A DNA stretch of 38,116 nt from a virus (Duplodnaviria > Heunggongvirae > Uroviricota > Caudoviricetes). The stretch lies in the IMG/VR virus record IMGVR_UViG_2541047893_000008; one strand, written 5' to 3'. A model generated the notes under the pieces. It searched no databases. It saw only the letters and a list, made by a program, of their open reading frames with translations, and was not told the origin of the DNA. Every line of letters starts with the position of its first letter. Positions within the stretch are counted from its first letter, which is position 1. A program made the translations under genes and the position numbers. Shown here one piece after another: positions 8,976 through 36,852 of the stretch.

Positions 8976-8979
8976 ACCA

Positions 8980-9294
8980 ATGACGACACCAACCAGACGG
9001 ATAAGTTTCTATCTGAAGCCCGCCGCCGTCAAGAGTGAACAGGAGGCGTGCAATTACCTCGATAGCCTGCCAGCCTCCGAACGCAGCCGCGCGCAACGCG
9101 CGGCCTTTCTGGCTGGGCTAGCGCTCATAAAGCGCAACCCAGCATTTGCCTACTGGATGGCCGAATGGCCAGAGGACAACCTCCCCTTCAATACCGTTAG
9201 CATCAAGGAAACATACCAGGATAATCAGCCTAGCGGAGTTGAATGCAATTTTTATAAAATTGCAAAGAATATTCAGACCTTATTCCCAGAATAA
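8980..9294 (+). CDS. parR: ParR/StbB-like small DNA-binding partner (putative ribbon-helix-helix)
   Basis: Small ORF immediately downstream of parM (start 5 nt after the parM stop, RBS AAGGAG). N-terminus RRISFYLKP followed by two helices (EQEACNYLDSL; SERSRAQRAAFLAGLAL) fits the RHH pattern of type II partition adaptors. Assignment is inference from context and pattern. Confidence 0.65.
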   Translation: MTTPTRRISFYLKPAAVKSEQEACNYLDSLPASERSRAQRAAFLAGLALIKRNPAFAYWMAEWPEDNLPFNTVSIKETYQDNQPSGVECNFYKIAKNIQTLFPE

Positions 9295-9343
9295 TCTGAT
9301 AATTGTATGTGAACTAATAAAATACAGACCAACACATCATTCT

Positions 9344-9366
9344 GGCACCCTTGCTAACAGGGTGCC
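9344..9366. terminator. Hairpin between convergent parR and the AT-rich membrane module
   Basis: ggcaccc-ttgctaac-agggtgcc: 8-bp stem, 7-nt loop in the 83-bp convergent intergenic gap. Confidence 0.4.
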
Positions 9367-9377
9367 AATGTTTCAAA

Positions 9378-10214
9378 TCATGATGAAATTGCCGAAGTTT
9401 TTTTATCGTGCTGAAGTACCGCAAATGCCATTAAAACCTCAAGAGAATAGCGGCGATAATACTTAACAAAACCATAATAAAATACTCGGGATGCAGCAAT
9501 ACAAAACAAGAGAAGAAAACAAAAAGGTAACAGTCTGATATTTATATCTATTAAAAAGGATAGAAGGAGCAGGAACATAAGCAACCAGACTGAAGCGAGA
9601 AAAACAAATGTAATGTTTCTACAAAAACCATACAAAGCAACATAGTTTTGCATTTTCACCTGATGATTTTTAGAATGTTCATACACATAATGATAAGCAA
9701 GGCGAAAAAGATCGCCCCTCAAGCCCTTACGTCGATATAGCGTAGATAAAACATTTATATAACCATCTCGTATTTGCGGCCAAAAGACTTTAATAAGTAT
9801 AGAATGCAGTGTGGTTTTATGATGTTCTGCTTTATCAAAAGCTGATACAGGAAATAAAAAAACTCCACGAATAAAATTAACTATACTGAACTTAGTATTA
9901 TGTCGTTTTATTTTCAGGGAGCTTCTTTTAGAAAACAGATAAATTGAAGGATACCCAAGTTTACTGTTCATGTATTTTTCAATTAAACAGGATGATAGAA
10001 TAGATATGAAGTGACCTGAAATATATGATAGAACGATTAATACCACATATATAAATACACTTATTATTTCTTTATATTTCAGGATATGGTTAAGAATACC
10101 TTCTATATAAACAGGGTTAATTTCAATAGAAAACAAAAAAAGGATAAACAGGAATAACCCACCTGGAATTAGATAGCCCAAAAAGTCATAAAATGAAAAC
10201 GGATTCTGTGTCAC
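9378..10214 (-). CDS. Polytopic membrane protein of unknown function (278 aa), AT-rich cargo gene
   Basis: Several long hydrophobic segments; codon composition much more AT-rich than the phage backbone; second gene of a two-gene leftward operon; RBS GGGGGAAG. Confidence 0.7.
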   Translation of the reverse strand: MTQNPFSFYDFLGYLIPGGLFLFILFLFSIEINPVYIEGILNHILKYKEIISVFIYVVLIVLSYISGHFISILSSCLIEKYMNSKLGYPSIYLFSKRSSLKIKRHNTKFSIVNFIRGVFLFPVSAFDKAEHHKTTLHSILIKVFWPQIRDGYINVLSTLYRRKGLRGDLFRLAYHYVYEHSKNHQVKMQNYVALYGFCRNITFVFLASVWLLMFLLLLSFLIDINIRLLPFCFLLLFCIAASRVFYYGFVKYYRRYSLEVLMAFAVLQHDKKTSAISS

Positions 10215-10253
10215 ACTTCCCCCTGTGTTACTTGTAAATTAAAGGGTAAAACA

Positions 10254-10751
10254 TTATTTGTTTTTCCGTAAAGGATTAGCTTTCCATCTTCTTACTAACC
10301 ATTCGAATTCTTGATATGTAGTATCCGAATTAATGCTTTCTCTGATTGCTTTAATTAATGGCTCGGCAATATCATATGTCTCTACAACTGTTGTGTAAGA
10401 TGTTCTTTTTATCATTTTTTCATCATAAATACCTTCACGAATACTTACAGCAACTCGCTCGTAAAAATTTAAAATATATTGAAATTTTCGGCGCTCGGCC
10501 ATTTCTTCATCTGTTATTATGCAACCATCACAAGGAAAAACATAAGAACGAAATGATTTGCCTGAACGATGCACTTGTTTCAGGGTATGCAATGACTCTA
10601 TATATTGCATATCTTGCCGACTCTCAAAAAGAAAGTTGGCCGTTTGAGTTTTTTTTGCGGTACGCACATTGTAGATAATGGTTCCAATGGCAACCAAAAC
10701 GCCAAGCAGAACAATAGTATTGCTGATGATTTGTAGTGTTATTGGGTTCAT
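10254..10751 (-). CDS. N-terminally membrane-anchored protein of unknown function (165 aa), AT-rich cargo gene
   Basis: Single N-terminal TM helix (ITLQIISNTIVLLGVLVAIGTIIY) followed by a charged soluble domain; first gene of the two-gene module; no family recognised. Confidence 0.7.
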   Translation of the reverse strand: MNPITLQIISNTIVLLGVLVAIGTIIYNVRTAKKTQTANFLFESRQDMQYIESLHTLKQVHRSGKSFRSYVFPCDGCIITDEEMAERRKFQYILNFYERVAVSIREGIYDEKMIKRTSYTTVVETYDIAEPLIKAIRESINSDTTYQEFEWLVRRWKANPLRKNK

Positions 10752-10771
10752 CCTATTTCATCCATAAAAAA

Positions 10772-10792
10772 GGCGGGGAGCAAATCCCCGCC
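10772..10792 (-). terminator. Rho-independent terminator-like hairpin (ggcgggga-gcaaa-tccccgcc) with a U-run on the minus strand, 14 nt upstream of the cargo-module start codon
   Basis: GC-rich 8-bp stem, 5-nt loop, followed on the minus strand by a T7 run. Oriented to stop leftward transcription coming from the Q-P operon. Confidence 0.6.
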
Positions 10793-10948
10793 TCATTAGA
10801 GGTCAACGTAGCTTAGAAACCATCAAATTCATCATACATTTTATTCATATCAACCCCCTCATAGAAATCATAACCACGTTTTGTGGTTTTTGTGACGTAT
10901 AAACTACATCAAAGGCAAGCCACGGTCAAATATATAGGCATGCTTACC

Positions 10949-10975
10949 TGCACAAAAGTGCACAAATTTGCACAA
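10949..10975. repeat. Three helically phased direct repeats (TGCACAA every 10 bp) in the cos region
   Basis: TGCACAAAAG TGCACAAATT TGCACAATTT seen directly; resembles a phased protein-binding array (terminase or host-factor site). Confidence 0.4.
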
Positions 10976-11071
10976 TTTTTTTGAACGACTTTTTACCCTT
11001 CCGGCCCGCATGGCGGCTGGATCCGTCAAGGATCCGTGCGTGCACAAAAAAACGCGCTTTTTCTGCGCGCA

Positions 11072-14197: not shown

Positions 14198-14351
14198 TGC
14201 TCCCCCTGAGTAATTACAGGAAGATTACCCGCGCGCGAAACTGTTCTCCTTAACCCCCTGTTCTGGCCGTTTTCTTACAACAAAAGCCCTTTGTATCAGC
14301 CTGTTACGCTTTGCCATCATGACTGAAGAACCAGTCAGAGGGGCAAAAACT

Positions 14352-22608: not shown

Positions 22609-24033
22609 ATGAGTACCACAACACGAAAATTTAAAACCGTTATCACCGATACAGGTGCAAAAAAATTAGCTCAGGCAGCCGCGCCAGATGGTAAGCCTGT
22701 CCGCCTGACTCATATGGCCGTGGGCGACGGTGGCGGCACGTTGCCCACACCAGACAGTAAGCAGACCCGTCTGGTGCATGAGGTGTGGCGACACACTGTT
22801 AATCGCGTCATCCTGGACGCAACACATCAGAACCGCATTATTGCGGAGCTGGTTATACCTCCTGAAACGGGCGGATTCTGGATCCGGGAAATTGGTGTAT
22901 TTGATGAGCACGGCGATTTAATCGCGGTGGGCAATACTGCCGAAAGTTACAAGCCAACCGTTGCCGAGGGGTCCGGACGTGCACAAACATTTCGCACCAT
23001 TCTGACCGTATCCAGCACTGCCAGCGTGGCGCTTACCGTGGATAACACCATGGTGATGGCCACAGTGGATTACGTGGATGACAAACTGAAAGAGCATGAA
23101 CAGTCACGACGTCACCCGGATGCCTCGCTGACCGCAAAAGGCTTTGTTCAACTCAGTAGCGCCACTAACAGCGATTCTGAAACGCTGGCCGCAACGCCGA
23201 AAGCGGTTAAGGCCGCGTATGACCTGGCTAACGGAAAATATACCGCTCAGGACGCCACGACGGCACGAAAAGGGATAGTCCAGCTCAGCAGTGCAACCAA
23301 CAGCACGTCTGAAACGCAGGCTGCAACGCCGAAAGCAGTAAAGGCGGCATATGACCTTGCTAACGCAAAATATACCGCTCAGGACGCAACGACGGCACGA
23401 AAAGGGATAGTTCAGCTCAGTAGCGCCACTAACAGCCCGTCTGAAACGCTGGCTGCGACACCAAAAGCGGTTAAGGCGGTAATGGATGAAACGAACAAGA
23501 AAGCGCCTTTAAACAGTCCTGCGCTGACCGGAACGCCAACAACGCCAACTGCGCGACAGGGAACGAATAATACCCAAATCGCAAGCACGGCTTTCGTTAT
23601 GGCTGCGATTGCCGCCCTTGTAGATTCGTCACCTGACGCACTGAATACGCTGAACAAGTTAGCGGCGGCGCTGGGAAACGACCCGAATTTTGCGACCACC
23701 ATGACTAACGCGCTTGCGGGTAAGCAACCGAAAGATGCCACCCTGACGGCGCTGGCCGGGCTTGCTACTGCGGCAGACAGGTTTCCGTATTTTACGGGGA
23801 ATGATGTCGCCAGCCTGGCAACCCTGACAAAAGTCGGGCGGGATATTCTTGCGAAATCGACCGTTGCTGCCGTTATCGAATACCTCGGTTTACAGGAAAC
23901 GGTAAATCAGGCTTCTGGCGCATTACAGAAAAACCAGAACGGCGCAGATATTCCGGGTAAAGATACCTTCACCAAAAACATTGGTGCCTGCCGCGCATGT
24001 GAGGCGGATCAGAATATTGGAGGGGAGCATTAG
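22609..24033 (+). CDS. H: Tail fibre protein H, constant N-terminal part plus a short segment after the gix crossover; apparently truncated
   Basis: 474-aa ORF with a conserved fibre N-terminus and internal 44-aa tandem repeats; crosses the left gix site at codon 423-431 and stops about 45 codons later. Fibre-like sequence continues out of frame downstream. Confidence 0.85.
   Translation: MSTTTRKFKTVITDTGAKKLAQAAAPDGKPVRLTHMAVGDGGGTLPTPDSKQTRLVHEVWRHTVNRVILDATHQNRIIAELVIPPETGGFWIREIGVFDEHGDLIAVGNTAESYKPTVAEGSGRAQTFRTILTVSSTASVALTVDNTMVMATVDYVDDKLKEHEQSRRHPDASLTAKGFVQLSSATNSDSETLAATPKAVKAAYDLANGKYTAQDATTARKGIVQLSSATNSTSETQAATPKAVKAAYDLANAKYTAQDATTARKGIVQLSSATNSPSETLAATPKAVKAVMDETNKKAPLNSPALTGTPTTPTARQGTNNTQIASTAFVMAAIAALVDSSPDALNTLNKLAAALGNDPNFATTMTNALAGKQPKDATLTALAGLATAADRFPYFTGNDVASLATLTKVGRDILAKSTVAAVIEYLGLQETVNQASGALQKNQNGADIPGKDTFTKNIGACRACEADQNIGGEH
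23137..23496 (+). repeat. About 2.7 tandem copies of a 132-bp (44-codon) repeat inside H
   Basis: Protein repeat KG(F/I)VQLSSATNS(D/T/P)SET(L/Q)AATPKAVKAAYDLAN(G/A)KYTAQDATTAR seen three times; nucleotide copies near-identical. Confidence 0.8.
23875..23900. other. gix/hix-like crossover site (left), inside H
   Basis: atcgaatACCTCGGTTTACAGGAAAC; inverted copy at 27174-27201. Matches the Mu gix consensus as I recall it; homology between the two copies continues about 100 bp. Confidence 0.75.
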
Positions 24034-24906
24034 GCATGTACAGCGCCGCATATTATTTTGGGGCTAGAGTGGTAGGCAGCAATTAACCATCCTTACTCGG
24101 GGAGCAAAGGCGAGTGGGCTTCTGCAAAGAATAAGGTCACTACAGATGCCGGTTGCGGTAACGCTTTTCTTGAAGGTGAAGTCAATGAAGTGATTGTGCC
24201 TGGCGGCTCGACTACCATTCGCGTAAATGCGCCGAGTTCTTTCAGCGGGGGTGAGATTACTGAGCCCGAAATCAATTCCATTATACATAGCGTTAATTAA
24301 GATCATGGATGGAGAGGTGATTACATTACGGGAAAGCAGCTTCCTGTATTTGTTTTAGCGCAAGCAGGGCGCACGGTCACAAATCATACTGATGTTGGCA
24401 CCGTCGGTCAAACCGCTGTTTAGGATGCAGCAACCAATCGCGCGACAAAATTCACGAACGCCCACAACATGCTGGCTTGTAACAGCGCGCGTGTACATTT
24501 TTGCGTGAATTCCATGTACGGCAGTATCTCCAATCTTTGCGGGAGTCTGGGTATTGGAATGGCTGATGCCTTGTGAGGAATTTACATCACATCAGGCAAA
24601 CACGATACTGGGTTTGAAGGAAAATATGCTCGGGCGCTAGATGCTTAAGGTAATGTTGCGCATGTACTCCTCTTTAGTAATTCATCTGTTCTATCATGAA
24701 AGGGTACTGGCTCTGCGGACAGGAAAGGTTTCGTCGTTACAGGTGCAATTACCGCTGACCGTGATGCATCATTTGATTCATGGCAAACTTGGTCAATTCC
24801 AAATTGTGTAAAGGGGGGTGGGGATTACGCGGGGAATTTCTATAGTCGACGCACTACAGAAACCTTAGTGATATTTACTGTAAACGATCAGATCCATACA
24901 AGCTAC
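24034..24906 (+). pseudogene. Remnants of the distal (receptor-binding) part of the tail fibre, broken by multiple frameshifts and stops
   Basis: Fibre-like peptide stretches in three different frames (SKGEWASAKNKVTTDAGCGNAFLEGEVNEVIVPGGSTTIRVNAP...; KGTGSADRKGFVVTGAITADRDASFDSWQTW...GDYAGNFY...), each ending in a stop; no ORF over 100 codons. Confidence 0.45.
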
Positions 24907-25387
24907 TGAGGTAACTTAAAATCCAGTTGTTTGAAACAGAGTATGCTTGACACAGATCTGAATAACGAAGTAATTAACTGCCAAACACTTAACATCTGGT
25001 GCACGTCCGGTCATGTGTTGTCTTTTATATATGTTCGGGAGACTCATTAAATCATCGCCAAGGATATTGCGTCGTTGTATTACATGATCGTTCAGAAGAT
25101 TATAGATCTGACATTTTATATTAATGCGAGCGCTTAATATGAGTAGTTGTAAGGACATCATAGCCGGTAACGCTGCAACGCCGGAAGACTGAAAATTAAC
25201 AAAGAAGCCTGCTGCCATCCGGCATTAATCAGAAGAAGGTAAAAACCTCACAGAGACAGCTAAGCATTTTCTCTCAGACGAATAAAAAAATGTTAACGAA
25301 GAAAATACTATTTTCGCCGCTATCAGAATATATGGTCAATTCCATACTGCCGAAAATGTTACCGGAATAAACGTAACGAGAGTAGGC

Positions 25388-25600
25388 TTGAAACCGGGCC
25401 TTAATTTTTACGGTAACTTTAGGTTTCATGCTGGCTCTGCCGTATCCACACGGTTGACGACAGATGAGCAGCGTCCACATGAAGCAACACATGAGGCTTC
25501 GTCACCCGTCGACGTAGAAAGCCTTATAGAGCCTCCGGAACGCGCTGTAAGGCTTAACGCGGCGGAGAATGAGGCAGGCGTACGACATGAGGCCTGGTGA
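25388..25600 (+). pseudogene. Remnant of a tail fibre assembly (chaperone) gene C-terminus
   Basis: Track ORF 25388..25600 ends ...IEPPERAVRLNAAENEAGVRHEAW, resembling the conserved C-terminus of P2 G / Mu U-type assembly proteins; upstream part not in frame. Confidence 0.35.
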
Positions 25601-26560
25601 TGCTATAGTTCTATCGTATACAGTCTGGTTACGACAGCGCCCTCCTTACACCACCAGCCTCATTAGTCATTAGCGCCTCGGATGAAGCCAACTTCCAGTC
25701 CCTTAGTTCCGCAAAAACTACTAGCAGTATGGAATTGTGCATAGATGCTACTAGCTGCGAAAAGATCATTTTCTCTGTTAACTTTCGTTAATTCTTCTCG
25801 GAGAAAGTGCTTAACCTCAGCATAGAAGTTTTTCCCTGCTTCTGATCACTGACAAGTTGCAGCATGCTTCTCTTTTAACTCTCAGCCTTCCGCTGCTTTT
25901 CTGCCTCGCGCTTAGTTCGCTTTTCAACGCATCATTCTAAGCACACGCTTTAATCCGCCATGTCACCTCTGTGTATTGCTGTAATGTCATGTAATTCAAC
26001 CCCGCTATCGTATTGCCGATTTAGGGATCTAACTCCCTTACCAATATAACTAATAATGCCTTACTTGAAGGGGACTGGTAGTACCATGTTTGGCAGTAAT
26101 TCCTATTGTTCCTTTGATGAGTTCTTAGCAGCACATCATTAACACCATTGGAATCTAAATTGTTTCAGTTGCTTGGTTGTATCTTTCCTTTTACAGTTAA
26201 CGGCACCGAGGTATTTGTATTTCGCCAACTATAAAAATTCCACCCGGAATCCTAACCCCGATCAGTGCCAGACGGTACTGGCGAATTCCCCCTCGTATTA
26301 AATGATTCATCACGGGCTCCGTTATCTGAACCTGAAAGTGCGAATAATGTACTTTCAGAAGCGTGAGGACCATTTAATGATTGAACAGAGCCCTGTCTAA
26401 CCCAGCATACATCTGCAATAAAAGCAGAATCATCCTCCGCCTCAGTACATGTACGAACAACCCCAGTAGAGGTTTTGCCTATAGCTGTGGAATACCCCCC
26501 CCGGTTAGCTGCAAAGCCATAACCATGACGCGCTGTAAAATAAAAAATAACGCCGTACCT

Positions 26561-27184
26561 TTAGTTAGAACGATAATATCCTGGCCGATAGCTACACGCC
26601 TTAATGGTGAAGGGGATGATGCTTTCCGTCGCGCCATTGATAGCTGCCCACTTAAAAGTTCTTTGACAGTCGGAGTCATCCGCATTAGGATTAACAACCC
26701 TTAGTCCTTCTTCCCCAAAAACTAGTGCAGGCAGCTGCCTGCCTTCAATGTAAAAACCTCTCCATACATGAGCATCAGCATCGCTAGGTTTAATGGAGGT
26801 GATTGGGGGCTCAGTAGTCCCGTACGCGGAGAACTTACTTGGCGCAGATAAGCCTCTATCAGTCCCGCCACGAGGGCTTACCACTCCAACCAATGCACAT
26901 TCATGACTTGCATAACCGCAACCGGTATATGTGATCACCTTATTCATTCTGGAAGCCAGTGAGCCTGTGCTGCCTCAGGAACGACGGAAAAAAACTCCAT
27001 GCCACTCTAGCCAAACTACATTAGACGGCGCATTAAATGCGTGACTATGCATACCATTTTTCTTACATGCCTCATATGCGCGGCAGGCACCAATGTTACT
27101 CAGGAAGCGATCCTTATCAGGAATATCCGCGCCGTTCTGTTTTTTTTGTAATGCGCCAGAAGCCAGATTTACCGTTTCCTGCAA
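26561..27184 (-). pseudogene. Alternative (inverted-orientation) tail fibre C-terminal segment, interrupted
   Basis: Minus-strand ORF 26975..27184 starts inside the right gix site and encodes QETVNLASGALQKKQNGADIP..., a paralogue of the H sequence at the left site, but stops after 69 codons; fibre-like sequence continues in another frame (ORF 26561..26947). Confidence 0.45.
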
Positions 27185-27201
27185 ACCGAGGTTTTAGATA
27201 A
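27174..27201. other. gix/hix-like crossover site (right), inverted relative to the left site
   Basis: Reverse complement reads ttatctaaAACCTCGGTTTGCAGGAAAC, near-identical to the left site and to my recollection of the Mu gix sequence; about 55 bp upstream of the invertase gene. Confidence 0.75.
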
Positions 27202-27255
27202 TGGCCGTTTCCGGCCTGCATGGCATGATTTGCGCTTTTGGACGGGAGATTCAGT

Positions 27256-27855
27256 GTGCTGATTGGTTATGTAAGGGTATCAACAAATGACCAGAATACA
27301 GGCCTGCAACGAAACGCTCTTGTTTGTGCAGGATGTGAACAAATATTTGAAGATAAATTAAGCGGGACAAAGACAGACCGACCGGGATTAAAACGCGCTT
27401 TAAAGCGGCTTCAAAAAGGTGACACGCTGGTTGTCTGGAAACTGGATCGCCTTGGGCGAAGCATGAAACATCTGATTTCTCTCGTCGGAGAACTACGGGA
27501 GCGAGGGATTAATTTTCGCAGTCTGACCGACAGCATAGATACATCTTCTCCAATGGGGCGTTTTTTCTTCCACGTGATGGGTGCCCTGGCTGAAATGGAA
27601 CGTGAATTAATTGTTGAACGTACACTGGCCGGACTGGCGGCAGCGCGCGCACGGGGGCGCACAGGCGGACGTCGCCCGAAGCTGACAAAAGAACAGCATG
27701 AGCAAATAGCAAGGCTGATCAAAAACGGTCATGACAGGAAACAACTGGCGATCATTTACGGCATCGGCATATCGACGATTTATCGTTATCACCCTGTAGG
27801 CGATATACAGGCTGAAGAAACAACCAGGCAGACTCAGGAAAATGAAAACCGCTAA
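27256..27855 (+). CDS. Serine recombinase, DNA invertase of the Gin/Pin/Cin/Hin family
   Basis: N-terminal catalytic motif LIGYVRVSTNDQ, resolvase core (VVWKLDRLGRS), C-terminal HTH (GISTIYRY); almost colinear with Gin/Pin from memory. Probable GTG start (track ORF begins 27238). Confidence 0.9.
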   Translation: MLIGYVRVSTNDQNTGLQRNALVCAGCEQIFEDKLSGTKTDRPGLKRALKRLQKGDTLVVWKLDRLGRSMKHLISLVGELRERGINFRSLTDSIDTSSPMGRFFFHVMGALAEMERELIVERTLAGLAAARARGRTGGRRPKLTKEQHEQIARLIKNGHDRKQLAIIYGIGISTIYRYHPVGDIQAEETTRQTQENENR

Positions 27856-27874
27856 TCTGACCATTAGCGGTTTT
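27845..27874. terminator. Bidirectional terminator-like palindrome between convergent invertase and gpU genes
   Basis: aaaaccgctaat-ctgacc-attagcggtttt: perfect 12-bp arms, 6-nt spacer, T-runs on both strands; overlaps the invertase stop codon. Confidence 0.55.
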
Positions 27875-27881
27875 GCGTTAA

Positions 27882-28376
27882 TCAAAACAGCCCTTTAACG
27901 GAGCTGGCCGCGCTGTTAAGGGATGATGTGACCTTATCTTTGAAGCCGGACAGCATATCACTGAACGATGAGGATTGCAGGCGCTCCCGCAAATCCTCAT
28001 CACAGCGTTCAAGGGTCAGTGAAAATTCTATCTTTTTCGCCTTACCGTAGCGATCAAACTCGGAACGGGTCGTATTCGTTCCGGTCAGGACATACATGCC
28101 GTAAATCTGCCCGACGCCATCAATCAAAGGCCAGGGTCGTCCTGTATACGCCTGCGTGGTCAGCAGCGACAGCGACACTTCGCCACCTGTAATTTCAGGA
28201 TAAAGCACACCAGAAAGAACGATGCGATCATCACCTGCACCGATATACTGCCAGCTTGCTGAACGGTTAACGCGTTCATTTTTCACATGCCGCCAGCTTT
28301 TGTTTTGCTGTAACTGCTGATGCGGCAGCGTGCGCAGCTCAAAAACAAACATGCCGTAGATCATCATCATGGCCAT
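27882..28376 (-). CDS. U: Tail protein U (P2 gpU family)
   Basis: 164-aa minus-strand ORF; MFVFELRTLPHQQ... and FSLTLERCDEDL match P2 U; follows tape measure T on the minus strand. True start may be one of the Met residues 3-5. Confidence 0.85.
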   Translation of the reverse strand: MAMMMIYGMFVFELRTLPHQQLQQNKSWRHVKNERVNRSASWQYIGAGDDRIVLSGVLYPEITGGEVSLSLLTTQAYTGRPWPLIDGVGQIYGMYVLTGTNTTRSEFDRYGKAKKIEFSLTLERCDEDLRERLQSSSFSDMLSGFKDKVTSSLNSAASSVKGLF

Positions 28377-28382
28377 GACTCC

Positions 28383-31226
28383 TCAATCTTTATCGTAAAA
28401 ACTGCCACGCCAGGCACGGGCGCGCCGTTCCATTTCTGCCCTGACCATTTCACCGACCAGTTTCGCCAGTTCGCGGGGATTCTGCGTAACAACGTTATGC
28501 AGATGAACATGAATTTCACCACCAAATCCGGAGGCAACAGGCTCCCGGTTACGGGAAGTTACAGGAACTGATGCCACTGGAGATCGTATAGCCTCCGCCA
28601 CCGGGCGGGAGCTGGCCGCAACAACAGGGACCAGCGCCGGAGGCAGCGGAGCCGGGAGCACGGGTGTGATATTAATTGCGGGGGCAGGCTTACTGGCCTG
28701 CGCAATCTTCCGCTCCTGCCACTCCCCACGAACAGCAAGTGCGCGGGGCAGGTTCTTAAAGACAATATCGCCGGGGCCAATGCGTTTTTTCGTCTCATCA
28801 ACCAGCTTACCTGTGTTATCAGCAATTTTGCTGAGTCTGCGTAGTGTACCGGTATTGCTGTCTGTGAGCGGTTTGTTGTCTTTGGGTTTATCACCTCCGG
28901 TGCCATTGCCATTTTCCACAGGCTTCGGCGGATTGATTTTCGCCAGGTCCCCCTGAAGCAAGGCAACCTTGTCCTGAAGAATGGCCGCACGCTGTGCGTC
29001 TTCGATTTTCTTTCTCGCCCTTTCCGCTTCATCCGGAAGAACACCGAGTTTTTCAAGTATCCACGCCAGCGTATCCAGCAACATTTTTGCAGGCGTCAGA
29101 ACAAGCTGTAACGCGCCACCAAGAACGTTACCGAATATCTCGCCAGCACTGGTACATTTATCCAGCGTTTCCTTGCTGGACTCCATCGGTGACAGCAGCG
29201 ATTTAAACCAGTTAAACACCTGGCTGATCCCGCTTCCGATTGCGTCAAAAACAGGACCAAACTGTTCAAAGGTTTCGCGCAACGGGATCAGCCTTTCCAT
29301 AATCCCGCTGAACACCCCGGCAAAAAATGCCCTGATGGGATCCCAGTATTTCCAGATAAGAACGGCAGCTCCGGCAAGCGCAGCCACGATAAGACCAACC
29401 GGACTGAACAGCGCCCCGATAGCACCTCCCAGCAAAGAAACGGAACCCGTCACCATTCCCCATAGTGCTGGCAGGACCCTGACAGCATTCATTGATCCGG
29501 TCAGGAGAGAAAAACCAAGACGCAGTTTTGCCAGCGGGCCAGCAAGCACACCAATAGCCAGCGACAACGAGCCAACCGTTGCAGTCATTGCCAGCAACGC
29601 ACCGCCTGCTATCAGTAGCTGGCGCGTCAGTGTCGGATGGGCCTGCGCCAGCGCCGTCACCCTTGATACCACCCGTGTGAGCCACTGCGTGACAGAACGC
29701 AGCGGACCGTCAATCAGATCTGCAATGCGGATGCGCAACCCTTCCCATGCACTGCCGAGTGATTTCAGATCGCCGTCAAGGTTGTTGGCCATAACCTTTG
29801 CTGTGCGTTCAGCCTCACCGCGTGCGCCTTCAAGTTCTTTTCTCAGTTTAGGTAAGGAACCGTCACCCGCTGCATCAACGAGCGCCATAAACGATGTGAA
29901 AGCCTCTTCTCCGGCAATGTCCTTAAAGAACGATACCCGGTCAACTTCCCCGTATTTGCGGGTGGCTTTATAAAGGTCGGCCAGCACATCCTCCATCGGG
30001 CGCATTTTGCCGTTCGCGTCAGAGACTGCCACACCAAGCTCTTTCAGCGCCTCTGCTGCCGCCTTTGGCGGTGATGCCAGACGAGCCAGGCTGGCACGCA
30101 TTGCCGTCCCGGCATCACTTCCCCTGATACCCATATTCGCCAGCACGCCTGCTATCGCTGCGGCCTGCTCCAGCGATATTCCCAGCTTACCCGCCACCGG
30201 ACCTGCATATTTCATGGTTTCGCCCAGTGCGCGAAGGTCAGTGTTGGTACGGGTAAACGCTGCGGTGAGCGTGTCACCGACCCGGTCCATCTGGTCGGCA
30301 GAAAGGCCGAACTGCGTCAGGATGTTTGAGCCAATATCCGCCGTCTCGCCGAGATCCATACCGCCAGCCGTTGCCATGCTCAGTACACCGGGAAGCGCAG
30401 CCTGAATGGCCTGTGGTGTGAAGCCAGCCATTGCAAGAAATGCCTGTCCACTGGCGGCATCTCCAGCGGTGAACTGCGTTTCAGAGCCAAGTTTTAACGC
30501 CTGCTCACGCAGCGCCTTAAACTGCGGGCTGTTTTTGTCGATTCGCGTCAGTGCCTGAACGCGGGACATCTCTTTGCCGAACCCGATCGCAGGCTGCAAA
30601 AAACGCCCGGCAGCATAGCCGCCAGCCGCTGCAGCACCAATTGCCAGCGCACCACCTGTTTTCAGTTTTCCCGCTGTTTCCTGCACGCGCGAATACCGCT
30701 CACGCGCCCGCGTTACACGCGCAAGCGCCTGCCGTTCGCGTTCAAGCTGGTTGTTGTACTGTTCGGTGCGTCTGATGGCCTGCTGGATGGTGTTATCGCT
30801 GCCTGTCAGGGAAATGCCGTGGCGTTTCAGCTCTCCGCCAAGTTCCCGCATTTTCTGAATTTCCCGTGTGCGCGATTCATTCAGGCGTTCAAGCCGGGTG
30901 CTTAACTGCTGCATCAGCTTTTGTTGTTTTTCGCTGAGCACTGTACCCGTGCGTTGTAACTGATTAAGGGCGTTAAGCTGGCGTCGTGCTTTCACGATAC
31001 CCGCATCCGCTTTACTGACAGCGTCGCGGGCGCGCTCAAATGAACGCGCCTGACGCTCGAGATTTTTGATCGCCCCCTGCGTTCGCTGGATGGAGTCACC
31101 AAACTGCCTCATCAGGCGGCGGGCGTTTTCGGCAGGCCGGGTCAGCCTGTCAACGGCGCTGAAAGCGACCCGGATATCAAGAGTCTTCATTGTCTGCATT
31201 CCCGCTGCGAAGTGCCGCCCGCTCAC
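28383..31226 (-). CDS. T: Tail tape measure protein (P2 gpT family)
   Basis: 947-aa minus-strand ORF; long helical N-terminal region, Gly/Ala-rich hydrophobic central segment, position between E/E' and U. Confidence 0.9.
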   Translation of the reverse strand: MSGRHFAAGMQTMKTLDIRVAFSAVDRLTRPAENARRLMRQFGDSIQRTQGAIKNLERQARSFERARDAVSKADAGIVKARRQLNALNQLQRTGTVLSEKQQKLMQQLSTRLERLNESRTREIQKMRELGGELKRHGISLTGSDNTIQQAIRRTEQYNNQLERERQALARVTRARERYSRVQETAGKLKTGGALAIGAAAAGGYAAGRFLQPAIGFGKEMSRVQALTRIDKNSPQFKALREQALKLGSETQFTAGDAASGQAFLAMAGFTPQAIQAALPGVLSMATAGGMDLGETADIGSNILTQFGLSADQMDRVGDTLTAAFTRTNTDLRALGETMKYAGPVAGKLGISLEQAAAIAGVLANMGIRGSDAGTAMRASLARLASPPKAAAEALKELGVAVSDANGKMRPMEDVLADLYKATRKYGEVDRVSFFKDIAGEEAFTSFMALVDAAGDGSLPKLRKELEGARGEAERTAKVMANNLDGDLKSLGSAWEGLRIRIADLIDGPLRSVTQWLTRVVSRVTALAQAHPTLTRQLLIAGGALLAMTATVGSLSLAIGVLAGPLAKLRLGFSLLTGSMNAVRVLPALWGMVTGSVSLLGGAIGALFSPVGLIVAALAGAAVLIWKYWDPIRAFFAGVFSGIMERLIPLRETFEQFGPVFDAIGSGISQVFNWFKSLLSPMESSKETLDKCTSAGEIFGNVLGGALQLVLTPAKMLLDTLAWILEKLGVLPDEAERARKKIEDAQRAAILQDKVALLQGDLAKINPPKPVENGNGTGGDKPKDNKPLTDSNTGTLRRLSKIADNTGKLVDETKKRIGPGDIVFKNLPRALAVRGEWQERKIAQASKPAPAINITPVLPAPLPPALVPVVAASSRPVAEAIRSPVASVPVTSRNREPVASGFGGEIHVHLHNVVTQNPRELAKLVGEMVRAEMERRARAWRGSFYDKD

Positions 31227-31706
31227 GCCAGCTAACCACTTCGCCGGGCGTCATCATGAAGATTTCGGCGGGCGACCAGTTAAAAATGGCGGCAATATCC
31301 GCCACAAAGTCTTCTATGTACTCAAAGCACACAACCGTGATCAGGCTTCCGTCGCCTGTTCGTTCTTCCCGCCAGAGTCCGCACCGCTCAAAAAATTTAC
31401 GGCAACCACACATAACTGAATAAAGTCACGGGATGCCATTTTTTTGATCGTCACTTCATCCAGTCGCGGTGATGTCACGCGTGACAGCAGCGTAAACATG
31501 GATTCCGCTTTCAGATTCAGCACATCAGACAGCGACAAATCTCGCAGAGATCCAGCCTGCTCAATAGCTCCGGTAATCTCCACATACGTGATTTTTTCGC
31601 CGCCTCGCTCAATTGGTTGGGTAAGTTTTACGCCACGCTCACTGGTTTCTTTCACAGTGTCAGCAACGACCGTGTTTTCGTTATCGATGTTTTTCGTCTC
31701 TTTCAT
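31177..31706 (-). CDS. Tail assembly chaperone E+E' (product of a programmed -1 ribosomal frameshift)
   Basis: E frame (31341..31706) and overlapping -1 frame (31177..31413) joined at a TTTTTTG slippery heptamer about 31389-31395 on the minus strand; same arrangement as P2 E/E'. Confidence 0.7.
31341..31706 (-). CDS. E: Tail assembly chaperone E (P2 gpE family)
   Basis: 121-aa minus-strand ORF between tail tube and tape measure genes; contains the slippery site near its 3-prime end. Confidence 0.85.
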   Translation of the reverse strand: MKETKNIDNENTVVADTVKETSERGVKLTQPIERGGEKITYVEITGAIEQAGSLRDLSLSDVLNLKAESMFTLLSRVTSPRLDEVTIKKMASRDFIQLCVVAVNFLSGADSGGKNEQATEA

Positions 31707-31760
31707 CAGGAAACTCCTTTCAATCAGAGGCGACGCACTGCGCCGCCTGCATATTACTTA

Positions 31761-32273
31761 TCAGCCAAGCCTAAGCGCGGAACGGATGCGATCGGGCACA
31801 ATGTCCTTGCCGTCCTTCCGGTAAATGAAGTTCAGCAGGTCAATCTCCCACAACGGGCGATCGTTAACACTCAGCTTGTAGTAGGTGTTTTTAATGGCGT
31901 AAGTGTGTGATGTGGCTTCGCCCTGTTTGGCTTCCCCCATATCAATTTCCGTCACACGTCCGCGCATTTCGACTTCATACAGGTCGCTTTCTGCATCGGT
32001 GTAGTATTCACCCGCAAAACGCAGCAGCGTGCCGTCAATCGTGCCGCCATACTTAAGGAACAGCTCACGAACTGCGCCCCCCATGACAAAGCTCGCATCA
32101 AGCGCGGAGTCGTCCAGACCGAGATCAATACTTACCGCACCCATCATGCCGCCCCCCCGGTAGCTGTCGGTTTTGCGCGTCAGTTTGGGCAGAGTGACGG
32201 ACGTCACCTTACCCACTTCGTTTTCACCATCCACAAACAGCGTAAAAAAGCGAAGATGTTTTGGCACAGCCAT
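31761..32273 (-). CDS. FII: Tail tube protein (P2 gpFII family)
   Basis: 170-aa minus-strand ORF immediately downstream of the sheath gene. Confidence 0.88.
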   Translation of the reverse strand: MAVPKHLRFFTLFVDGENEVGKVTSVTLPKLTRKTDSYRGGGMMGAVSIDLGLDDSALDASFVMGGAVRELFLKYGGTIDGTLLRFAGEYYTDAESDLYEVEMRGRVTEIDMGEAKQGEATSHTYAIKNTYYKLSVNDRPLWEIDLLNFIYRKDGKDIVPDRIRSALRLG

Positions 32274-33457
32274 CAGGCACCTCCCAGCACCGCAAATGCG
32301 GGTTCAAAGTATTCATCAGTAAACGTCTGGTAAAGCTCCATGTCTTCCAGTGGCGGAACGGGCGTATATTTGTAGCGAATACGCACACGTCCCTGACGTA
32401 AATCCGTGGTGCTGTTATCCACCACGTCATACCAGCACTCCGCGCCAATCAGTTTCCCGGCAGTAACCAGTGAATCCAGTTTTGCCCTGATGGCACTGAT
32501 AACATCCTTCACGTTCGCAGGCGTCAGTGGACTGTCGATGGTTTCAAACTGCGCTTCTGCAATTGAATCAGCCAGCACCTGTGCGGTTCGGGTATACACC
32601 TCAAAGATGTAGGCGTTCGTTTCCGGTGTGCGGTTGCCCCAGAAGCGGAACCCGTTGCGACGAATAATGGTCGTGATTTCTTTGTTGTTGAGGCTGTTGG
32701 CATCGCTGTCTTCGGCCTGCAACGACCAGAACACATGCCTCGACATCCCCAGCACATTTTTAACCGGAACGTTGGACAGTGATTTGTGCCATCCCTGCTC
32801 ATGGTCAATGTACGCACGAAGGCCGCACGCATAGGCAGGCGCGGGGAACGTTTCGTTTTTGCCACTTTTCGGGTTGTAGGCGATGAAGTCCGGCCATAAG
32901 AGCATCACCTCACGTTCGTTGAATTTCTGGCGGTAGGTAATCGCCTCAGCCATCGTGTTACAGCCGTGACATGAGGCATACACAAACGCGCGCAGTTTAC
33001 CCGCAATCACGCACAGGGATTTTGTTACCGCCTCCGTGTCCAGCTCCGGCGCGGCCAGAATACGCGGACGGTATCCGATGCTTTCATCCTGCTCTGCAAC
33101 AAGCAGCGCATACATCCCCGTATAGCTGCCGTCAGATTCAGAACCACCGATAACCAGTTGATCCTGCGTCTTTCCGTCTTCTTCTTTGTGTTCAGCCACG
33201 CGAACGACGATCACCTTTGTGCTCACCTGGTCTGCAATGGCCTTAAGCGCACGATAAAGCGTCCCCGTTGTCCCGCATTTTCCCAGCACGTCATTGACGC
33301 GGGTCAGCAGTGTGGGCTTGTTCAGCGGGAACAGCTTCGCGTCCGCATCATCCGCCGTTGCCACGATACCGATAACGCTGGAATCAACATCGTTAATCGC
33401 TGTTACCAGGTCGGTATTTTCCGTAACACGGGCACCATGAAAACGAGTTTCACTCAT
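32273..33457 (-). CDS. FI: Contractile tail sheath protein (P2 gpFI family)
   Basis: 394-aa minus-strand ORF; blocks (LRAFVYAS, WPDF, EQGWHK, IRRNGFRFWGNRT, YTRTAQV, YTPVPPLE) match P2 FI. RBS AAGGGG. Confidence 0.9.
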   Translation of the reverse strand: MSETRFHGARVTENTDLVTAINDVDSSVIGIVATADDADAKLFPLNKPTLLTRVNDVLGKCGTTGTLYRALKAIADQVSTKVIVVRVAEHKEEDGKTQDQLVIGGSESDGSYTGMYALLVAEQDESIGYRPRILAAPELDTEAVTKSLCVIAGKLRAFVYASCHGCNTMAEAITYRQKFNEREVMLLWPDFIAYNPKSGKNETFPAPAYACGLRAYIDHEQGWHKSLSNVPVKNVLGMSRHVFWSLQAEDSDANSLNNKEITTIIRRNGFRFWGNRTPETNAYIFEVYTRTAQVLADSIAEAQFETIDSPLTPANVKDVISAIRAKLDSLVTAGKLIGAECWYDVVDNSTTDLRQGRVRIRYKYTPVPPLEDMELYQTFTDEYFEPAFAVLGGA

Positions 33458-33614
33458 AGCTTCAGCCCCTTGTATCCGTTAAATGATTCGGCAACAATCA
33501 TCACCCACCACGCGCGTAATCTCACCCCTGCGCCGTTCTCCCGACCCGGCGACAACAAAAAGCAGTAACCCCCTCCGCACGCACATGCGACCATGCCGCA
33601 CAGGGAGGGAACAG

Positions 33615-34724
33615 ATGACCGACACCACCATGCAATTGCTCAGTCAGGGCACAGACCCCGTGAAAATGCCGGATTTTGATATTCTCGCGGAGGGTAAAAC
33701 GCTGTCAGGCGTGGCAGAGCGCCTGATGAGCCTGTCACTGACCGACAACCGGGGATTTGAGGCGGACCAGCTCACCATCATGCTGGATGATGCAGATGGT
33801 CAGTTGCAGCTACCGCCACGGGGCGCGCACCTGACGGTTCTCATTGGCTGGAAAGGAGAACCGCTGACAGAAAAAGGCACTTACATTGTTGATGAAATCG
33901 CTCACGAAGGACCGCCGGACAGGCTGACTGTTTCAGCCAGAAGCGCAGATTTTCGGGATGAATTTAACGTTAAACGTGAGGTGTCCTGGCATGATGTGAC
34001 CATTGAGCGTGTGGTATCCGCCATCGCTCATCGGTATGGTCTGAAACCGCAAATCAGCGAAATGCTGATGGATATCGAAATCGACCACGCCGACCAGACC
34101 GAAGAAAGCGACATGTCCTTCCTTACGCGCATGGCGGAAATGCTGGGCGCAATCACCACGGTAAAAAGCGGTAATCTGTTATTCATTATGCCAGGCGGTG
34201 GCGTGAACGCACAGGGCCAGCCGTTGCCATCGTTCGCCATCACGCGCAGCAGTGGCGATCGCCATCAGTTCCGCATTGCTGACCGCGAGGCGTATACGGG
34301 GGTACGCGCTTACTGGCTTGATCTTAATTACGGGAAAAAGAAAAAAGTCAGCGTGAAACGCCGCAAACCGCCAAAACCCAAAAAGGAGAAAAGCAGCAGC
34401 CGTGAAGGTGATTATATGGAAGGCGCGGAAGGCAATGTGTTTGTGTTACGCAAGACTTATCAGAACGAGCAGGCAGCAAGACGCGCAGCGGCGGCAAAGT
34501 GGCAGCAGCTACAACGCGAAGCCGCATCATTCTCCATCACGCTGGCACGTGGTCGTGCAGAACTCTACCCCGAAATGCATGGCACGGTAACAGGATTTAA
34601 AAGCGAGATTGATAATCAGGACTGGATTATTGCAAAAGCCGAGCACACCATCGATAACAGCGGCTTTACCACGCAGCTTGAGCTTGAGGCAAAAATCCCG
34701 GAATGGATAGCAGAAACAGAGTGA
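33615..34724 (+). CDS. D: Tail protein D (late gene D, gpD family)
   Basis: Start at internal ATG (MTDTTMQLL...) preceded by GGGAGGG; blocks (SLTDNRGFEAD, TIMLDDADG, TYIVDEIAHEGPPD, SWHD, FTTQLELE) match P2 D. On the opposite strand to FI-U. Confidence 0.88.
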   Translation: MTDTTMQLLSQGTDPVKMPDFDILAEGKTLSGVAERLMSLSLTDNRGFEADQLTIMLDDADGQLQLPPRGAHLTVLIGWKGEPLTEKGTYIVDEIAHEGPPDRLTVSARSADFRDEFNVKREVSWHDVTIERVVSAIAHRYGLKPQISEMLMDIEIDHADQTEESDMSFLTRMAEMLGAITTVKSGNLLFIMPGGGVNAQGQPLPSFAITRSSGDRHQFRIADREAYTGVRAYWLDLNYGKKKKVSVKRRKPPKPKKEKSSSREGDYMEGAEGNVFVLRKTYQNEQAARRAAAAKWQQLQREAASFSITLARGRAELYPEMHGTVTGFKSEIDNQDWIIAKAEHTIDNSGFTTQLELEAKIPEWIAETE

Positions 34725-34766: not shown

Positions 34767-35027
34767 ATGTTCCGTTGTCCGCTTTGTGGCGCATCTGCCC
34801 GTATCCGCACCAGTCGTCCGGAAAATGATTCAAACACCGTGCGGCAAAAGTATTACCAGTGTAACAACCTGGAATGCGGCGTATGCTTCTCAACACTGGA
34901 AGCTTTCCATAAATTCACATCAAAACACGCCTCCGGTGTTCACTCTTCAGAAGGTATCCCGTGGCATGAGCTGCCAGCTTCACACAGGGGAAACAATCAG
35001 ATGAGTTTGCCTTTATCTCAGAATTAA
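34767..35027 (+). CDS. ogr: Ogr/Delta-family zinc-finger late transcription activator
   Basis: 86 aa; N-terminal MFRCPLCGA...RTSR...YYQCNNLECG with four Cys spaced as in P2 Ogr; last canonical gene before the right end. Confidence 0.8.
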   Translation: MFRCPLCGASARIRTSRPENDSNTVRQKYYQCNNLECGVCFSTLEAFHKFTSKHASGVHSSEGIPWHELPASHRGNNQMSLPLSQN

Positions 35028-35218: not shown

Positions 35219-35359
35219 ATGTCGCAAAAATCGCTTACGGCCATCACGTTCTGCGTGACGGTAATCCTCATCATCTGGATGCTGCACGGTTCGCTGTGTG
35301 AAATACGGATGAGCTTTTGGGGAGCGGAGTTTGCGGCGTTCTTACAGTGTAAGCAGTAA
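35219..35359 (+). CDS. Hok/Gef-family-like small membrane toxin (candidate type I toxin)
   Basis: 46-aa ORF with RBS AGGAG 7 nt upstream: short N-terminus, one TM helix (AITFCVTVILIIWML), then the SLCEIR motif and EFAAF segment characteristic of Hok/Gef/PndA proteins. Followed by a 9-bp-stem hairpin. Confidence 0.55.
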   Translation: MSQKSLTAITFCVTVILIIWMLHGSLCEIRMSFWGAEFAAFLQCKQ

Positions 35360-35621: not shown

Positions 35622-35954
35622 ATGGCATTAATCAAATGTCCTGAATGCCAGAAAGAGGTGAGCGATTCAGCATTGTATTGCCCTGCTTGTGGTAAACAAC
35701 TGCAAAAACTTAAGCGTTCATTTTTTGGACGGATCATTAAGTGGGTTTTTATATTATTTAATATTTTTATGATCTATACGCTTTTAGTTGGAATAGGAGG
35801 CACTAGTGAAATAATAAATAATGCCACATCCGATGCCGAAAAAGCCGGTGCAGTTATTGGTACAGGCTTAGGTTTAATTACCATTGGAAGCTTATGGGTT
35901 ATTGGCGATATCATTATCGGAATTTTAGTATTTCTTACTAAACCAAAGGGATAA
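35622..35954 (+). CDS. Zinc-ribbon membrane protein (CPxC...CPxCG plus two TM helices), AT-rich cargo
   Basis: 110 aa; N-terminal Cys4 ribbon (CPECQ...CPACG), two hydrophobic helices; strong RBS AAAGGAGG; TTGACA -35-like hexamer about 85 bp upstream; AT-rich. Confidence 0.65.
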   Translation: MALIKCPECQKEVSDSALYCPACGKQLQKLKRSFFGRIIKWVFILFNIFMIYTLLVGIGGTSEIINNATSDAEKAGAVIGTGLGLITIGSLWVIGDIIIGILVFLTKPKG

Positions 35955-35958
35955 TAAA

Positions 35959-36852
35959 ATGAAAAATATAATTTTTTCTATAGGTGCATCATTTATATCA
36001 ATTAGTGTACTGCCTGTTCACGCAGCAACTGAACATAAGAACTTCAATGCAGTACTTCAGTGCCGAGCAATAGAAAATAATAAAGACAGACTTTCTTGTT
36101 ACGATAAGTCAATACAACCGACTCGAACGAAAGTTGCTGAAAAATTCGAAAGCAGAGATCAATGCCCTGATGAGAAAGATGATGATAGACGTTTATCTTG
36201 TTATGATCGTTTCTTTTCTCCAACATTTACTCCATCTGTAAACTCAAAATCTAAAACGGAAAAGCCAGTAACAACAGAGGCTCAGCAACCAAATCTTTCT
36301 GAGATATCTAAATGTCGTGCAGAAAATGATAAAGAAGCCAGACTAAACTGCTACGATAAACTATTCCCACAGGATAAAATCGCTCAAGCTGAATCAAAAT
36401 TAGAGAAAGCCACAGATGTAGGAAAATGGCACACATCCATTACTACATCGCCAATTGATGATTCGAAAAATGTAATTTTATCGTTAGAAAGTGATGATTA
36501 TATCAGAACTCCATTTGGAGAAGCGGTTACTCCTACTCTTTTTATAGCTTGCCGAGAAAAGAAAACCGAAGTATTTCTTAGTTGGGATGTATATTTAGGC
36601 CTTGAACAAACCAGCATGCTTTATCGCCTTGATAAACAGAAAGCAGTTGAGCGAAACTGGCTAGTATCTACAGATACAAAGGCTGTTTTTTATAAAGGTA
36701 ATGACATTGATTTCATCCGAAAACTAGCCAACTCAAGCAAAATGTATACAAAAATAACGCCTTATAATGAGAGCCCCGTAAGTGCAACTTTCAATTTAAA
36801 CGGCCTGTCAAACGCGCTAAAACCGCTTCAAGCTGCTTGTAACTGGAAATAG
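35959..36852 (+). CDS. Secreted/periplasmic protein with three Cys-containing repeats, AT-rich cargo
   Basis: 297 aa; signal peptide (MKNIIFSIGASFISISVLPVHA); three copies of a roughly 35-aa motif C-x7-9-(D/E)xRL(S/N)CYD(K/R)-x-F; start 4 nt after the zinc-ribbon gene stop. Confidence 0.7.
   Translation: MKNIIFSIGASFISISVLPVHAATEHKNFNAVLQCRAIENNKDRLSCYDKSIQPTRTKVAEKFESRDQCPDEKDDDRRLSCYDRFFSPTFTPSVNSKSKTEKPVTTEAQQPNLSEISKCRAENDKEARLNCYDKLFPQDKIAQAESKLEKATDVGKWHTSITTSPIDDSKNVILSLESDDYIRTPFGEAVTPTLFIACREKKTEVFLSWDVYLGLEQTSMLYRLDKQKAVERNWLVSTDTKAVFYKGNDIDFIRKLANSSKMYTKITPYNESPVSATFNLNGLSNALKPLQAACNWK

Follow-up and report, generated by a model that had tools for sequence, protein, structure and literature searches.

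Organization of the tail gene region

The window, i.e., the whole stretch of DNA that was analyzed (38,116 nucleotides, IMG/VR record IMGVR_UViG_2541047893_000008), encodes a contractile tail module of the Peduoviridae type, with FI, FII, E/E', T, U, D and an Ogr/Delta-type activator all represented by Pfam matches. The genes and junction features of this region are:

27238-27855, plus strand: serine invertase of the Gin/Hin family (Resolvase PF00239 and HTH_7 PF02796), neighbor of the inverted block and outside the inversion
27845-27874, no strand assigned: bidirectional hairpin terminator common to the convergent invertase and U genes (terminator scan)
27882-28376, minus strand: gpU tail protein, last gene of the inverted block (PF06995, E-value 1.5e-38; 100% identity to P88 U)
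28383-31226, minus strand: gpT tape measure protein (PF10145, E-value 1.8e-58)
31177-31413 (frame, ending at 31177), minus strand: E', predicted -1 frameshift extension of gpE (PF06528)
31341-31706, minus strand: gpE, partner of E' in the E+E' frameshift
31761-32273, minus strand: gpFII tail tube (PF04985, E-value 5e-46)
32273-33457, minus strand: gpFI tail sheath, first gene of the inverted operon (PF04984, PF22671, PF17482)
33458-33614, no strand assigned: FI/D divergent control region (157 bp), its architecture conserved in 61 distinct relatives
33615-34724, plus strand: gpD baseplate hub / late control D protein, forming its own transcription unit here (PF05954; 98% identity to P88 D), preceded by a GGAGG Shine-Dalgarno sequence
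34767-35027, plus strand: ogr, zinc-finger late activator of the Ogr/Delta type (PF04606, E-value 5e-14)

Open reading frames and Pfam matches put U, T, E/E', FII and FI on the minus strand, with D and ogr on the opposite one; the orientations given in the first-pass annotation agree with these gene identities. The gap between the divergent FI and D genes is exactly 157 bp long (33458-33614), and the block converges with the invertase gene, whose stop codon is 26 bp from that of U; the gap length and the convergence had been stated before and were reproduced. The canonical operon, with all genes from FI to D in the same direction, is absent from the window, as FI to U are on the minus strand and D is on the plus strand.

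In P2, FI, FII, E, E', T, U and D form a single rightward operon (the F operon) transcribed from pF. This order is the one given in P2's own annotation, and the window order is therefore inverted relative to P2. The seven P2 products are homologous to those of the window (32-49% identity, tblastn). The inversion relative to the P2 order is real and measures about 5.6-5.7 kb: FI to U are inverted relative to D and ogr, and D is detached from the operon. U overlaps D in P2, whereas it ends at a convergent terminator in the window. The stem of this terminator is formed by AAAACCGCTAAT/ATTAGCGGTTTT and is flanked by an A-run and a T-run on opposite sides, and the hairpin overlaps the stop codon of the invertase. 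Its predicted RNA folding energies are -16.9 kcal/mol for the plus strand (z -5.0) and -15.6 kcal/mol for the minus strand (z -4.4).

Other details of gene structure are also P2-like. Upstream of T, the minus strand contains a slippery heptamer of the P2 type, TTTTTTG (31395->31389), which is common to P2 and the window, and P2 annotates E+E'. As judged from this motif, the window carries a predicted P2-like programmed -1 frameshift site for E+E'. The T open reading frame extends to 31226, although RefSeq relatives have the start at 31190 (AH21F008 annotation). An alternative ogr frame (34786-35004) lacks the Ogr domain and was rejected in favor of the real gene at 34767-35027.

Distribution of the inverted gene order

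Nucleotide identity to P88 and phiSM (Peduoviridae, genus Xuanwuvirus) was 95-96% in the tail region, over 62-77% of a 14-kb query. Both phages have the order of the window, namely H, tail-fiber inversion cassette, inv>, <U <T <E' <E <FII <FI, D>, ogr>, and also its 157-bp gap between FI and D. They differ from the window only in the variable tail-fiber segment, which is blended in the window, and in cargo genes. Membership in the genus Xuanwuvirus (P88-like) is supported by nucleotide identity and by the order shared with P88.

The inverted order is not confined to this genus. Collinear arrangements were found in the phages P88, phiSM, SEN5 and Kp4871-3, representing three ICTV genera; annotations of P88, phiSM, SEN5 (Senquatrovirus) and E. 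coli prophages show the order, and tblastn revealed it in the unannotated record of Kp4871-3 (Reginaelenavirus). Members of Senquatrovirus (Salmonella SEN4/SEN5) and Reginaelenavirus (Klebsiella Kp4871-3) share the inverted order and an FI/D gap centered on a dyad, and their D proteins are 62-70% identical to that of the window. They differ from the window in having no invertase cassette at the G/U junction and longer FI/D gaps (about 136-171 nt), and their dyad is a perfect or near-perfect GTTGT-N12-ACAAC/T.

Among complete E. coli genomes, about a quarter (1349/5426) contain the block and both junctions as one collinear match; E. coli matches total 1989, and exceptions to the orientation were looked for among the 40 matches listed. 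For a broader survey, we took the 80 best-scoring loci from genomes sampled once per species and added phage and prophage loci. Every classifiable locus with D at least 61% identical to the window D had the inverted order (57/57, many Enterobacterales genera), and all loci with D at most 53% identical had the P2 order, but because the loci are the best-scoring ones, P2-order phages are under-sampled and exceptions may exist outside the sample. As the relatives are not independent of each other, these counts overstate the statistical support. Neighbor-joining trees, built for D, FI and U, group the inverted-order loci in one clade without any P2-order member inside; the P2 order is also that of the outgroups Burkholderia AP3 and Pseudomonas Dobby.

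The first-pass annotation had itself named such a norm, with conserved promoters, as evidence against its proposal of a rearrangement, and the inverted orientation is indeed the norm in the related clade, with conserved promoter-like geometry. The gene order is ordinary in P88-like phages and their relatives, and the orientation of FI-U versus D is what sets the P88-like clade apart. Recognizing this stops a false lead: next to the textbook map of P2 the order looks rearranged, but it is the usual one for P88-like, SEN4-like and related phages, prophages of which abound in E. coli and other Enterobacterales. A D protein at least 61% identical to that of the window, or a divergent FI/D pair, can serve as a marker for the clade versus P2-order Peduoviridae. 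The literature searched, including the SEN4/SEN5 and phiSM papers, nowhere discusses the inversion.

Assembly of the region

An assembly artefact, one of three mechanisms that had been offered for the inversion, is not supported for the block. Positions 27238-34724 are 100% identical to, and collinear with, the complete chromosome of E. coli AH21F008, and the same collinear arrangement in 1349 complete genomes and in the independently sequenced phages P88 and phiSM, which are inducible and viable (PMC6456863), leaves next to no chance that the orientation is a mis-assembly of this record. The two junctions carry dedicated signals, a terminator and a promoter-like region conserved across genera, which also argue against it. 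What could be held in favor of a mis-assembly is that a consensus artefact does exist nearby, in the adjacent invertible tail-fiber segment (23999-27091). It is this segment, not the FI-U block, that is a sequence artefact rather than biological sequence.

In the tail-fiber segment, the two orientations are blended base by base. Its tail-fiber genes are riddled with stop codons, and decay to pseudogenes was considered and dismissed, as every base matches one of the two segment orientations of AH21F008.

The invertase and its sites

The invertase system of the window resembles the invertible segments of Gin (Mu), Cin (P1), Hin and Pin, with which the window shares an intact invertase and two inverted 26-bp sites. 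These sites, nearly identical to Mu gix, are found at 23873-23898 and 27176-27201 only. Both lie on the left side of the invertase gene, bracketing the tail-fiber segment with its alternative tail-fiber C-termini and assembly genes. The Gin-type system spans about 23873-27201 only, and the FI-U block has neither sites nor orientation polymorphism.

No gix-like sites had been seen at the two block junctions in the first pass, and a scan with the gix consensus bore this out: the best matches at the two junctions had 9 and 11 mismatches in 24 positions, the same as random windows. A search for inverted repeats between 22000 and 35500 found none bracketing the block. A 26-nt inverted pair of 77% identity (27568/33640) was discarded, since it falls within coding sequence and is no better than chance.

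Is it nevertheless conceivable that the resident Gin/Hin-type invertase once inverted the FI-U block, or still switches it, through secondary sites? The intact gene ends 26 bp from the block, and the blended tail-fiber segment suggests an active invertase in the source culture. This explanation is largely refuted, and we regard it as very improbable. In addition to the absence of gix-like sites above background at the junctions, an inversion through the real gix sites would flip the invertase gene too, because both are to its left, and this has not happened. An invertase at the junction is missing from most relatives that share the order (it is present in only about 10 of the classified loci). 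Among P2-order phages, SopEphi and two other loci carry invertases at the same spot. The block occurs in a single orientation throughout, as no polymorphism with both orientations was seen in the 1349 collinear E. coli genomes or the 57 loci, and it is free of base blending, unlike the tail-fiber segment. The target of the invertase is the tail-fiber segment on its left rather than FI-U. A link between the inversion and the invertase, as suggested earlier, is not supported, given the same-order relatives without an invertase there and the location of the gix sites elsewhere.

The control region between FI and D

The divergent gap contains three predicted regulatory elements:

33535-33556, no strand assigned: putative dyad for an Ogr-type activator, GTTCT-N12-ACAAC, centered at 33545.5
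33497-33502, minus strand: predicted -10 hexamer of the FI promoter, GATGAT, with a predicted start near 33490
33589-33594, plus strand: predicted -10 hexamer of the D promoter, GACCAT, with a predicted start near 33601

The exact Ogr pattern of P2, TGT-N12-ACA, has no match in the FI-D gap. This search missed the dyad because the left half-site of the window is TCT (TCT-N12-ACA, one mismatch to the P2 core). The dyad was recognized by comparison with the P/O gap of the window and with the relatives. The clade consensus, GTTGT-N12-ACAAC, contains the P2 core; it is perfect in 15/66 relatives, and the right half-site is present in most. Only two sites in the window match GTTST-N12-ACAAC without mismatch, one being the dyad itself (33535-33556) and the other lying in the divergent P/O gap (14260-14281). 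In nearly all relatives, the dyad is 64-78 nt from the FI ATG.

In 57/61 distinct gaps on the FI side and in 51/61 on the D side, the end of a -10-like hexamer lies exactly 38 nt outward from the dyad, and a conserved CGCGCG-rich box lies between the dyad and the -10 on the D side. The P2 promoter pF has its dyad at about -55 and the same spacing to the -10 as the FI side of the window; the offset is 39 in P2, with the mapped start 7-9 nt further, and 38 in the window. P2 also provides a precedent for the two-sided arrangement: according to its annotation, pP and pO share one symmetric Ogr site midway, with starts about 55 nt to each side. Both the P/O gap and the FI/D gap of the window show this geometry, although pP and pO were mapped experimentally, whereas the FI/D promoters are deduced from conservation, and P2 has no such promoter before D.

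The first-pass annotation had argued that D needs its own promoter. In view of the conserved promoter-like signals in the gap, D appears to have one. As far as these patterns go, the dyad centered at 33545.5 may drive both divergent late promoters, namely pF, which would start minus-strand transcription near 33490, and a new pD, which would start plus-strand transcription near 33601. Two features speak against this: the TCT in the left half-site, where P2 has TGT, and the weak D-side -10, GACCAT. The analysis thus predicts a shared bidirectional late promoter (dyad 33535-33556, starts near 33490 and 33601), for which no description was found in the literature searched.

Alternatively, D might have a promoter of its own that works without the shared dyad, either a constitutive sigma-70 promoter or one with a second, unrecognized activator site. 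The conserved CGCGCG box, which has no assigned role, would leave room for this. A scan with the sigma-70 consensus predicted no promoter in the FI-D gap, but such a scan is uninformative for activator-dependent promoters, so nothing is proven by the empty result. We consider an independent promoter unlikely, as the D-side -10 holds its exact 38-nt offset in 51/61 gaps while the leader length varies, the pattern expected of an activator-positioned promoter, and as P2 uses one site for two divergent promoters.

Origin of the inversion

Since most relatives lack a junction invertase and gix-like sites occur only around the tail-fiber segment, the inversion is best explained as a single ancient event. 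Of the three mechanisms offered earlier, ancient rearrangement is supported, and invertase-mediated inversion and assembly artefact are not. Very probably, the window is a P88-like (genus Xuanwuvirus) prophage whose order was fixed in the ancestor of its clade by one ancient inversion of the P2 order; the timing and mechanism of this event are what we infer from the comparisons above.

A different history would be that the clade ancestor took up a foreign FI-U module by recombination, in the opposite orientation and with no inversion in situ. P2-like phages are mosaic, and in neighbor-joining trees the stem branch is somewhat longer for FI (0.145) than for D (0.091). However, identity to P2 is similar for FI, FII, U and D (44-49%), with the same clean tree split, and the FI promoter retains a P2-like geometry (dyad-to-ATG distance 88.5 nt versus 83 nt in P2). 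A module swap seems improbable on these grounds, even though inversion in situ and an ancestral swap in opposite orientation cannot be formally separated.

The proposed inversion in situ would have had one breakpoint just upstream of the pF activator site and the other at the U/D junction, and would have left H, G, [cargo], <U <T <E' <E <FII <FI, D> ogr> as the fixed ancestral order of a deep Peduoviridae clade. The FI promoter would have been carried along, and the symmetric Ogr-type activator site thereby placed beside D. We lean towards the view that this created a second bidirectional late promoter and uncoupled D from the sheath/tube operon, in a layout kept across many Enterobacterales genera. 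At the other end, the U-side junction would have become a place where convergent transcripts stop at a bidirectional hairpin terminator, and would have stayed the usual spot for cargo insertion downstream of the tail-fiber genes, a spot that in this phage holds the Gin-type tail-fiber inversion cassette.

Gene order of the tail module

The window is a P2-family prophage, in which the tail block and its neighbours were assigned from Pfam matches as follows.

27238-27855, plus strand, serine invertase
27882-28376, minus strand, gpU
28383-31226, minus strand, tape measure protein T
31341-31706 and 31177-31413, minus strand, E and E'
31761-32273, minus strand, tube protein FII
32273-33457, minus strand, sheath protein FI
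33615-34724, plus strand, gpD
34767-35027, plus strand, Ogr/Delta zinc-finger activator

A P2-type slippery heptamer, TTTTTTG, is located inside the E/E' overlap. According to the P2 record, FI, FII, E, E', T, U and D form a single operon transcribed from pF, whereas FI to U are flipped in the window. The inversion reported in the first-pass annotation was thus confirmed by P2's own operon annotation and the Pfam gene calls. The starts of FI and D are divergent, with 157 bp between them. The stop codons of the invertase and U genes are convergent, 26 bp apart, and meet at a strong hairpin, a predicted intrinsic terminator readable in both directions.

RefSeq gpD of E. coli AH21F008 (L090 30025-30825, corresponding to window 33924-34724) is a shortened protein of 267 aa that overlaps a pseudogene fragment. 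The DNA behind it contains an intact D ORF of 369 aa, 98% identical to P88 gpD, so that the short form looks like an annotation quirk and not a mutation.

The inverted order in related phages and prophages

The inverted FI-U order is nothing unusual, and many annotated genomes in public databases already show it. A search of the available literature found no paper commenting on it. Escherichia phage P88, Citrobacter phage phiSM, Xuanwuvirus P884B11 and several E. coli prophage-derived phages matched a 14-kb query around the block with 95-96% identity, and their annotations show the gene order of the window. P88 and phiSM are viable, inducible phages (PMC6456863). Over the 7.5 kb that run from the invertase through D, the window and AH21F008 are 100% identical, and this stretch was found as a single collinear match (at least 80% of the query covered) in 1349 of the 5426 complete E. 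coli genomes, among them ST131 EC958 and O157:H7 strains. The invertase is absent from many relatives. In its place, E. coli 2013C-3252 carries a serine O-acetyltransferase gene and E. coli GF4 (75% identity) nothing; the arrangement <U...<FI D> is kept in both.

A tblastn search of a phage collection with the D protein gave a band of matches at 60-80% identity. The inverted order was found in Salmonella phage SEN5 (Senquatrovirus, D 62%) and Klebsiella phage Kp4871-3 (Reginaelenavirus, D 70%), and the P2 order in SopEphi (Felsduovirus) and a Klebsiella Kapieceevirus (D 52%). Bacteria were scanned using one genome per species and the D alignment as query, from which the 80 best-scoring loci were taken; these were classified by tblastn with FI, FII, T, U, D, ogr, H and invertase. 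Among these and the phage and prophage loci then in hand, all 57 classifiable loci with D identity of at least 61% had the inverted order, and every classified locus with D identity of 53% or less had the P2 order. Hosts of the inverted order included Salmonella, Edwardsiella, Symbiopectobacterium, Serratia, Kluyvera, Erwinia, Enterobacter, Mixta, Pantoea, Kosakonia, Citrobacter, Pectobacterium, Brenneria, Klebsiella, Yokenella, Xenorhabdus, Photorhabdus, Providencia, Morganella, Hafnia and Yersinia.

The P2 order is taken as ancestral, because it is also present in the outgroups Burkholderia AP3 and Pseudomonas Dobby. In neighbor-joining trees of D, which lies outside the block, and of the block genes FI and U, inverted-order loci formed one clade, with no P2-order member inside. 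Judged from these sequence comparisons, the simplest account would be one ancient inversion, passed down together with the remaining tail module. The first-pass annotation had left ancient rearrangement, secondary inversion by the invertase and assembly artefact as options. The first of these is supported by the clade-wide order and the trees and the other two were rejected (see below). The order is standard in a clade whose predicted promoters are conserved, an outcome that the first-pass annotation had named as refuting its reading.

The invertase and the cargo slot

Exactly two gix-like 26-bp sites are present in the window, at 23873-23898 (TTATCGAATACCTCGGTTTACAGGAA) and, inverted, at 27176-27201. 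They bracket the alternative tail-fibre C-termini and assembly genes, and both lie to the left of the invertase gene. At the two block junctions the gix consensus matched no better than in random windows, in line with the earlier failure to find convincing sites there. Inversion of the block by the invertase was rejected, since the actual gix sites would have flipped the invertase gene as well, but it is not flipped. Moreover, an invertase is present at the junction in only about 10 inverted-order loci, and some P2-order phages carry one in the corresponding position as well.

Cargo is generally inserted at the spot that follows the tail-fibre genes. The G/U junction (in P2, G/FI) serves repeatedly as such a slot: it is occupied by serine O-acetyltransferase in 2013C-3252 (L003 5279-5851), by fun(Z) in P2 (slot at P2 15675-17261), by sopE in SopEphi and, in P88-like phages, by invertase cassettes.

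A blended tail-fibre segment

Stop codons abound in the tail-fibre genes of the invertible segment. Outside the segment, window and AH21F008 are nearly the same, with 8 substitutions and a single 6-bp indel over about 31 kb, whereas 36% of positions differ in 23999-27091, without any indel. These differences are spread evenly over codon positions, with transversions as frequent as transitions. Each of the 3093 positions equals the forward or the rigidly flipped AH21F008 base (855 both, 1117 forward only, 1121 flipped only, 0 neither), with the choice alternating at single-base resolution; the segment therefore represents a blend of the two orientations. As a consequence, H is cut short at 474 aa; the two tail-fibre assembly genes, like the alternative C-terminus of H, contain 4-9 in-frame stops. 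As given, 23999-27091 is not a biological sequence. The blend may be a deliberate construction, but is most likely a consensus artefact of a culture with both invertase-made orientations at similar frequency, which would imply an active invertase. No such base-by-base blending was seen in the FI-U block. Mis-assembly of the block was rejected in view of its identity to AH21F008, its collinearity in the 1349 complete E. coli genomes and its presence in the viable phages P88 and phiSM.

A predicted shared promoter region between FI and D

The FI-D gap contains GTTCT-N12-ACAAC (33535-33556), a candidate Ogr-type activator dyad with only one other zero-mismatch occurrence in the 38-kb window, at 14260-14281 in the divergent gap between terminase (P) and scaffold (O). 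The usual form in relatives, GTTGT-N12-ACAAC, includes TGT-N12-ACA, the core of the P2 Ogr site, and lies 64-78 nt from the start codon of FI. The gap sequences compared, 61 distinct ones, are related and hence not statistically independent; a -10-like hexamer ends exactly 38 nt past the 22-bp site on the FI side of 57 and on the D side of 51, with near-zero counts for other offsets. A CGCGCG-rich box precedes each hexamer. The mapped P2 pF is similar (GTTGT-N12-CCAAC, -10 GAAAAT ending at offset 39, with transcription starts 7-9 nt beyond it), and the divergent P2 pP/pO have one annotated activator site, with starts 55-56 nt to either side. Because the dyad/-10 geometry is conserved and resembles that of P2 pF and pP/pO, we propose a shared pF/pD activator site with two promoters. 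The inversion would have taken pF along with the block, and its symmetric activator site would now also serve a divergent D promoter, with predicted transcription starts near 33490 (minus strand) and 33601 (plus strand). The proposed shared pF/pD promoter is the one mildly new element.

The P/O gap (14198-14351) has a geometry like that of P2 pP/pO on both sides, with -10-like TAATCT at offset 38 on the P side and CATCAT at offset 39 on the O side. As in RefSeq, O probably starts at 14352 and not at the first ATG (14319).

Other cargo genes

Two cargo genes (35622-36852) follow ogr and a hok/gef gene (about 35219-35359) and encode a zinc-ribbon protein and a VasI/TagO-like type VI secretion-associated protein; phiSM has both as well. 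The prophage ends before flk at 37121. A low-GC island (9000-11000, 34-38% versus about 54%) between ParM-like partition genes (8016-9288) and the portal gene is probably acquired cargo. It has two ORFs.

9378-10214, minus strand, ORF
10254-10751, minus strand, ORF annotated as DUF4760 in AH21F008
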